From NCBI RefSeq assembly GCF_003334335.1, contig NZ_QOWQ01000244.1: a DNA stretch of 207 bases. One strand, written 5' to 3'. The DNA is from Escherichia coli. GTDB taxonomy: Bacteria; Pseudomonadota; Gammaproteobacteria; Enterobacterales; Enterobacteriaceae. The notes beneath the pieces were generated by a model. It was not told the DNA's origin, made no database searches, and was given only the letters and a program-made list of their open reading frames with translations. A program made the position numbers and the translations under genes. The first letter of the stretch is position 1. The number at the start of each line of letters is the position of its first letter. Of the stretch, positions 1 to 207 are shown piece after piece.

Positions 1-135
1 GCTGGCTCCAAGTGAAAACAGCATCGTGGTGGCAGAAAAACCACCGGCTGCCAGGGCTGAACCCCATAACGCCATCGAGGCTCCGGCCGTGATGAACGAC
101 CCCACGATGGCCGCCGCCCCCAGCACAATCTGCAG
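1..135 (-). other. Predicted membrane-embedded region of the encoded protein (window residues 25-69); about two helix-lengths, possibly a helical hairpin or a helix plus re-entrant segment
   Basis: 45 consecutive residues without D/E/K/R/H: LQIVLGAAAIVGSFITAGASMALWGSALAAGGFSATTMLFSLGAS. Small-residue motifs recur (GAAAIVG, AGASMALWG, AAGGF), and W-G-S at residues 48-50 is a possible turn or interface. Helix boundaries are not computed; this is by-eye hydropathy. Confidence 0.5.
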
Positions 136-207
136 TCCGCCCTTTCCGGCACCGGCCAGTCGCGGCACAATGTGGATGACCGTTCCCTCACCCAGCTGTT
201 CGTGAAG
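1..207 (-). CDS. Partial CDS (internal fragment, truncated at both window edges) encoding an integral membrane protein, probably a transporter/permease; family not resolved
   Basis: Seen in sequence: minus-strand frame (first codon at + 205-207, last at + 1-3) is open for all 69 codons. Translation: LHEQLGEGTVIHIVPRLAGAGKGGLQIVLGAAAIVGSFITAGASMALWGSALAAGGFSATTMLFSLGAS. Residues 25-69 contain no charged residue and are dominated by small and aliphatic residues. Codon usage looks genuine: Leu is CTG in 6 of 9 codons, Ala is GCC in 9 of 13, and third-position GC is about 67% (46/69). The two in-frame Met codons (+ 73-75 and + 22-24) sit inside the hydrophobic stretch and are not plausible starts. 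Inference: membrane protein, likely a transporter, from composition only. Confidence 0.75.
136..207 (-). other. Polar, glycine-rich extramembrane loop of the encoded protein (window residues 1-24)
   Basis: Translation LHEQLGEGTVIHIVPRLAGAGKGG carries all the charged residues in the window (H, E, E, H, R, K) and a Gly-rich stretch, AGAGKGG, immediately before the hydrophobic region. This is consistent with a loop connecting transmembrane helices; which side of the membrane it faces cannot be determined here. Confidence 0.4.

Follow-up and report, generated by a model that had tools for sequence, protein, structure and literature searches.

A 207-nucleotide stretch of Escherichia coli DNA, very probably the central part of gene I of a lambda-like phage or prophage

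The window, by which the whole stretch of 207 nucleotides analysed here is meant, is very probably the central part of gene I in an E. coli siphophage or prophage of the lambda type, and the product of this gene a lambda-like tail-tip protein. The gpI-encoding fragment occupies positions 1-207 on the minus strand and comprises codons 78-146 of 226, as assigned from DNA identity, phmmer and PHROG matches. DNA identical to the window over its full length (100%) is present in Escherichia phage PhiR5_1, within a gene whose annotation reads 'tail tip assembly protein I', and in prophages of the Shiga-toxin genomes E. coli 2012EL-2448 and STEC2018-553. In the PhiR5_1 locus, gene I (L001 7758-8438) has an open reading frame of 226 codons and the window corresponds to 8001-8207. 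It is wholly internal to the gene, in agreement with an earlier sequence-only reading that had placed the window entirely within one minus-strand gene. About 115 Stx-converting and related phages carry sequences 90-96% identical to the window, and close copies were detected in 1,763 of the 5,426 complete E. coli genomes, with up to 11 per genome. On sequence grounds, the allele belongs to the Stx-phage/PhiR5_1 group and not to that of lambda proper.

Minus-strand frame 0 is stop-free across the full window and its translation is LHEQLGEGTVIHIVPRLAGAGKGGLQIVLGAAAIVGSFITAGASMALWGSALAAGGFSATTMLFSLGAS. When this 69-residue translation was searched against the PDB with phmmer, lambda gpI (8IYK chain I) was matched with E=5e-19, window residues 1-69 being aligned to gpI 78-145 at 69% identity; the lambda gpI entries 8IYL, 8K35 and 8XCG were matched as well. 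Full-length BLASTP of the 226-aa protein against lambda gpI (223 aa) gave 67% identity (151/225, E=2e-105). Compared with lambda gpI, the protein is two residues longer in the inter-helix loop and one residue shorter in the linker. The full protein matched PHROG tail families with E=1e-86 and 3e-79, and the Pfam domain PF06805 (Lambda_tail_I) was found at residues 15-97 (E=1.6e-16). With the 69-aa fragment alone, Pfam returned insignificant matches only (DUF4225, E=0.021; PETase, E=0.041); PF06805 was missed because no more than its final 20 residues fall within the window. No NCBIfam model matched the protein. Every defining feature open to testing places the gene product in the lambda gpI family: its sequence, the Pfam domain, the N-terminal fold, the Gly linker, the hydrophobic segment, the C-terminal region and synteny. 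Nothing was found that speaks against this identity. The family, which had been regarded as impossible to name from the sequence, is that of lambda gpI.

The neighbours of the window gene were read from the 100%-identical records of PhiR5_1 and E. coli 2012EL-2448. In PhiR5_1 the gene is part of a complete module of the lambda type, which consists of FI, FII, Z, U, V, G, T, H, M, L, K, I, J, lom and a tail fibre gene, and the L-K-I-J arrangement is identical around the copy in the 2012EL-2448 prophage. Gene K (L001 8339-9079), the upstream neighbour, encodes Prok-JAB (E=7e-15) and NlpC/P60 (E=1e-12) domains. The window gene shares with lambda I its domain order and its position between K and J, and the start of I overlaps the end of K by 103 nt in PhiR5_1 and lambda alike. 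Among distant homologues, a J-type, tail or fibre gene follows I in all 11 annotated loci that show neighbours, and in most of the loci a K-type gene precedes it. The sequence-only reading had left it to the identity of the protein and of its neighbours to decide between an ordinary locus and part of something unusual; the neighbours, being lambda tail genes, make the locus an ordinary one. A phage holin was also considered as the identity of the product and rejected, as only phrog_5847 was matched, at E=0.29, and the gene lies within the tail module and not in a lysis cassette.

Gene I is annotated as a protein of 193 aa both in PhiR5_1 (L001 7758-8438) and in 2012EL-2448 (L007 11758-12339), with a GTG start that overlaps the TGA stop of K. 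The 226-aa open reading frame, with its lambda-like N-terminus MATTNAF...ARICLYGDLQRFGRR, begins at an ATG that is preceded by GGGAGAGG. Since the short form would lose the invariant residues G21, L23 and G27 together with the first part of PF06805, the annotated start is probably wrong. Two further observations were made in these loci. The PhiR5_1 tape-measure gene H is present as two adjacent CDS (L001 10114-10353 and 10353-12686), which could reflect a frameshift, a sequencing error or a split in the annotation. Between M and L, two tail genes of the 2012EL-2448 prophage, lies a gene with the annotation porin OmpC (L007 13985-15148), an odd site for cargo.

Conservation was studied in an alignment of 14 proteins, with homologues from Ralstonia, Burkholderia, Mannheimia, Klebsiella, Pseudomonas, Vibrio, Serratia and E. 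coli phages that are 30-38% identical to the query. A common layout was seen in all 14: an N-terminal domain, a Gly/Lys linker, a charge-free hydrophobic run and a conserved C-terminal region. The N-terminal domain closes with an I-x-I-x-P strand, in which I90 is nearly invariant and P92 invariant. Of the linker glycines, G96 is conserved in at least 90% of the sequences and G101 is invariant. The charge-free run, 48-76 residues long, is present in 14 of 14 homologues; within it G107, G144 and G151 are conserved and the sequence is otherwise variable. The C-terminal region (residues 147-226, outside the window) is 76% identical to that of lambda, and F177, N182, G187, G195 and G200 are invariant in the alignment. 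The gpI of Stx2a_JNE082796 is 11 residues shorter than the window gene's protein; the two are 93-94% identical in residues 1-70 and 147-226, but the identity falls to 25% in the hydrophobic part. The comparison suggests a mosaic protein, in which the middle module may have been swapped by recombination with its charge-free character kept. Given the 25% identity, the exact sequence of the hydrophobic part appears to be weakly constrained.

The homologues of Salmonella phage ES18 and Escherichia phage mEp515 were left out of the alignment, as a stop occurs in the matched frame shortly after the start of the tblastn match (L019 and L020, respectively). In ES18, gp28 (L019 301-855) is annotated as 115 aa and the tblastn match to gpI begins ~200 nt upstream. 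The gene in these two phages may be frameshifted, split or mis-annotated.

Positions 163-207 (minus strand) encode the C-terminal end of a predicted ubiquitin-like (beta-grasp) domain, residues 78-92 (LHEQLGEGTVIHIVP), which includes its last strand, VIHIVP; the assignment is drawn from PF06805, AlphaFold2 and Foldseek. In the AlphaFold2 model, built on the 14-sequence alignment, the N-terminal domain (residues 11-94) had a pLDDT of about 72-76 and the strand at 87-92 of about 70-76. The best Foldseek matches of this domain were SAMP1, CysO and MoaD, with target-normalised TM-scores of 0.69-0.74, a probability of 1.00 and E values of 1e-3 to 1e-2; ubiquitin-like proteins were among its matches too. 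The model thus gives moderate support to a beta-grasp fold, in agreement with the placing of gpI in the ThiS/MoaD-like beta-grasp group in 2006 (PMC1779556). Like the ThiS/MoaD/SAMP proteins, on which the predicted domain superposes, gpI has conserved glycines after the domain. Unlike those proteins, which end at Gly-Gly, the domain of the window gene is fused to further protein, and in place of a sulfur-carrier or conjugation context there is a JAB/NlpC-P60 neighbour.

The Gly-rich linker RLAGAGKGG (residues 93-101; positions 136-162, minus strand) is delimited by conservation and is the predicted site of JAB cleavage (PMC1779556). Iyer and colleagues noted the conserved glycines after the beta-grasp domain of gpI and predicted in 2006 that the JAB peptidase of gpK frees the ubiquitin-like domain by a cut at its C-terminal glycine (PMC1779556). 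The Prok-JAB and NlpC/P60 domains encoded by K fit this prediction. A loose fit with cleavage is also offered by the closed-state model of lambda gpI, which begins at residue 101, at the Gly-Gly (PMC11101478). In the mass-spectrometry table of the virion, gpI is represented by one peptide with 9.87% coverage, the part of the protein being unspecified (PMC10721106). A literature search, the matches of which were dominated by unrelated 'GPI' papers, found no experimental test of the cleavage of gpI by gpK-JAB. To the cleavage idea the window itself contributes glycine conservation only. That the linker is a true processing site, at which the JAB peptidase of gpK removes the ubiquitin-like domain and the virion retains only the helix and plug part for later entry into the host outer membrane, is a tentative proposal that we regard as possible and rather doubtful.

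The remainder of the window (positions 1-135, minus strand) encodes residues 102-146 of an uncharged Gly/Ala-rich segment corresponding to lambda helix H1 and most of H2, as judged from hydropathy, AlphaFold2 and the homologues. The translation has a Gly-rich polar beginning followed by 47 uncharged residues; the sequence-only reading had described the same layout and had counted 45. In the full protein the uncharged run is 59 residues long (100-158) and is the sole hydrophobic run in 226 aa. Its mean Kyte-Doolittle value is 1.35, with a peak 19-residue mean of 1.89 at residue 113. AlphaFold2 predicted helices at 104-127 and 137-151 with low confidence (pLDDT about 40, the value also obtained for residues 95-181 as a whole), the second extending past the edge of the window. 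H1 and H2 of lambda are predicted to be transmembrane by TMHMM (PMC11101478). The membrane-protein character proposed from the window holds in so far as the hydrophobic stretch is long and its lambda counterparts are TMHMM-predicted; the product is a virion tail-tip protein and not a cellular membrane protein.

In cryo-EM structures of lambda, three gpI molecules are located inside the tail-tip cone. Through their C-terminal parts they form a tripod-like plug and beta-sheet augmentations with gpJ, and clasp the coiled coil at the C-terminus of the tape-measure protein (PMC10721106, PMC12617516). Ge and Wang divide gpI into an N-terminal domain that is not resolved, H1, H2, the plug (159-175) and beta-strands; in their maps the protein is resolved from residue 101 in the closed state and from residue 167 in the open, LamB-bound state (PMC11101478). 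Other cryo-EM studies resolve gpI from residue 134/135 only (PMC12617516, PMC10721106). From the 67% identity and the identical gene order, we infer that the product of the window gene has the same tail-tip roles. It would be built of four parts: the ubiquitin-like beta-grasp domain, the Gly-rich linker, helices H1/H2 and a C-terminal plug-and-strand region. Three copies would sit inside the tail-tip cone made by gpJ and gpL, with the C-terminal parts plugging the tube and gripping the tape-measure protein by its C-terminal coiled coil. On binding of gpJ to the receptor, the hub domains would swing out, the plug would open and the hydrophobic helices would leave their position. Two steps are hypothetical: H1/H2 might then insert into the host outer membrane and start the conduit for DNA, and the JAB peptidase of gpK might clip off the ubiquitin-like domain at the Gly linker.

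The membrane step has a competing explanation in which the window gene is likewise a gpI orthologue and the hydrophobic segment stays out of membranes, serving as luminal packing for assembly and for the tape-measure C-terminus and being expelled or disordered on opening. Insertion of H1/H2 into the outer membrane is itself a proposal, and what was observed in lambda is the loss of their density in the open state (PMC11101478), that is, a vanished density and not an insertion. In the closed state the helices lie in the lumen beside gpH (PMC11101478, PMC10721106), and cryo-electron tomography assigns the periplasmic channel mainly to gpH* (PMC12617516). A segment whose sequence is poorly constrained beyond its composition also suits a packing role. 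Against this explanation, a charge-free run of 48-76 residues is kept in every homologue despite turnover of the sequence, which fits a lipid-facing role. The TMHMM prediction for the lambda helices points the same way, as does the open-state chain, which is directed toward the membrane (PMC11101478), and for the T5 pb3 plug, which occupies the equivalent position, an interaction with the outer membrane is reported (PMC10721106). Packing without membrane entry is thus a possibility to be kept in mind, and one that we consider unlikely.

Three other systems bear on the tail-tip reading of the window gene. The pb3 plug of T5 resembles gpI in that its three copies make up a tripod and seal the tube where the gpI tripod does, with the outer-membrane interaction mentioned above (PMC10721106); it differs in being a domain inserted in a large hub protein with no separate gene, and the likeness is one of description. 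[quoted passage not shown] Unlike a phage, the pyocin is a bactericidal particle that delivers no DNA, and THIP too is likened by description. PDB 9L9P chain A, a 'Putative tail assembly protein' of 199 aa, matched window residues 10-52 (E=3.5e-5), a match running from the last strand through the Gly linker to the first hydrophobic helix. It is a more distant member of the gpI family, close in sequence to Klebsiella KpV522-type proteins.

The sequence-only reading had taken the product for a polytopic, transporter-like protein of the cell, as a long stretch of uncharged small and aliphatic residues with Kyte-Doolittle values in the transmembrane range would suggest. The 226-aa protein contains a single hydrophobic run, searches of Pfam and NCBIfam gave no transporter family, and the 67% identity to lambda gpI, the PF06805 domain and the tail-module neighbours identify it as an orthologue of lambda gpI. 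A transporter is therefore extremely improbable.

The same reading had described the minus-strand frame as open edge to edge, which the translation confirms; its coding status is set by homology. Frame openness by itself is weak evidence for coding in this window, which has a G+C content of 63%. The window was shuffled 5,000 times with its dinucleotides preserved: any one frame came out free of stops throughout in 33% of the shuffles, and one or more of the six in 91%, so that the openness is within chance. Minus frame 1 is stop-free too, and plus frame 1 contains one stop, in its last codon. The open reading frame in plus frame 1 runs from 26 to 205 (59 codons; 68 codons in context), the frame span 2-205 having 67 codons. 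In comparison with two relatives that are 95-96% identical, 7 of 8 and 9 of 10 differences fall at the third codon position. The wobble positions of minus frame 0 and plus frame 1 coincide, so that this bias cannot decide between them; the same coincidence accounts for plus frame 1 staying open. The two frames are told apart by homology. The minus frame 0 translation matched the tail families PHROG 4244/4946/32 with E values of 5e-24 to 2e-14, and the plus-frame translation had no PHROG match, so the opposite strand, contrary to a possibility raised earlier, does not give the stronger match. Alternative frames are interrupted by stops across the homologous stretch of lambda and Stx2a_JNE082796. 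On the basis of these stops and the homology matches, minus frame 0 is the coding frame. That plus frame 1 or minus frame 1 is the real frame or an additional one, on the strength of being nearly or fully open within the window, is scarcely credible in view of the chance expectation, the stops in the homologues and the plus product without a PHROG match.

At the DNA and RNA level nothing unusual was seen in the window. An Rfam search of both strands with E values up to 1 gave no match, no promoter-like or terminator-like sites were found, and the repeats were trivial ones of 10 nt only. Folding of the sense-strand RNA was no better than that of shuffled sequences (z=-0.41).

As a discovery the window matters little: its sequence is already deposited at 100% identity and its protein family is known and structurally characterised. 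The lesson lies in its interpretation. A long run of uncharged residues rich in Gly and Ala, when seen in a short window, is not necessarily the mark of a transporter; in this case it is the hairpin of hydrophobic helices in a phage tail-tip protein. The hypotheses of JAB cleavage and of outer-membrane insertion concern lambda itself and not the locus of the window in particular. If the cleavage idea, which dates from 2006, is true, the tail tip would undergo a virus-encoded maturation step of ubiquitin-like and deubiquitinase-like type. Within gpI, the window covers the part about which least is understood, where the ubiquitin-like domain joins the hydrophobic helices.
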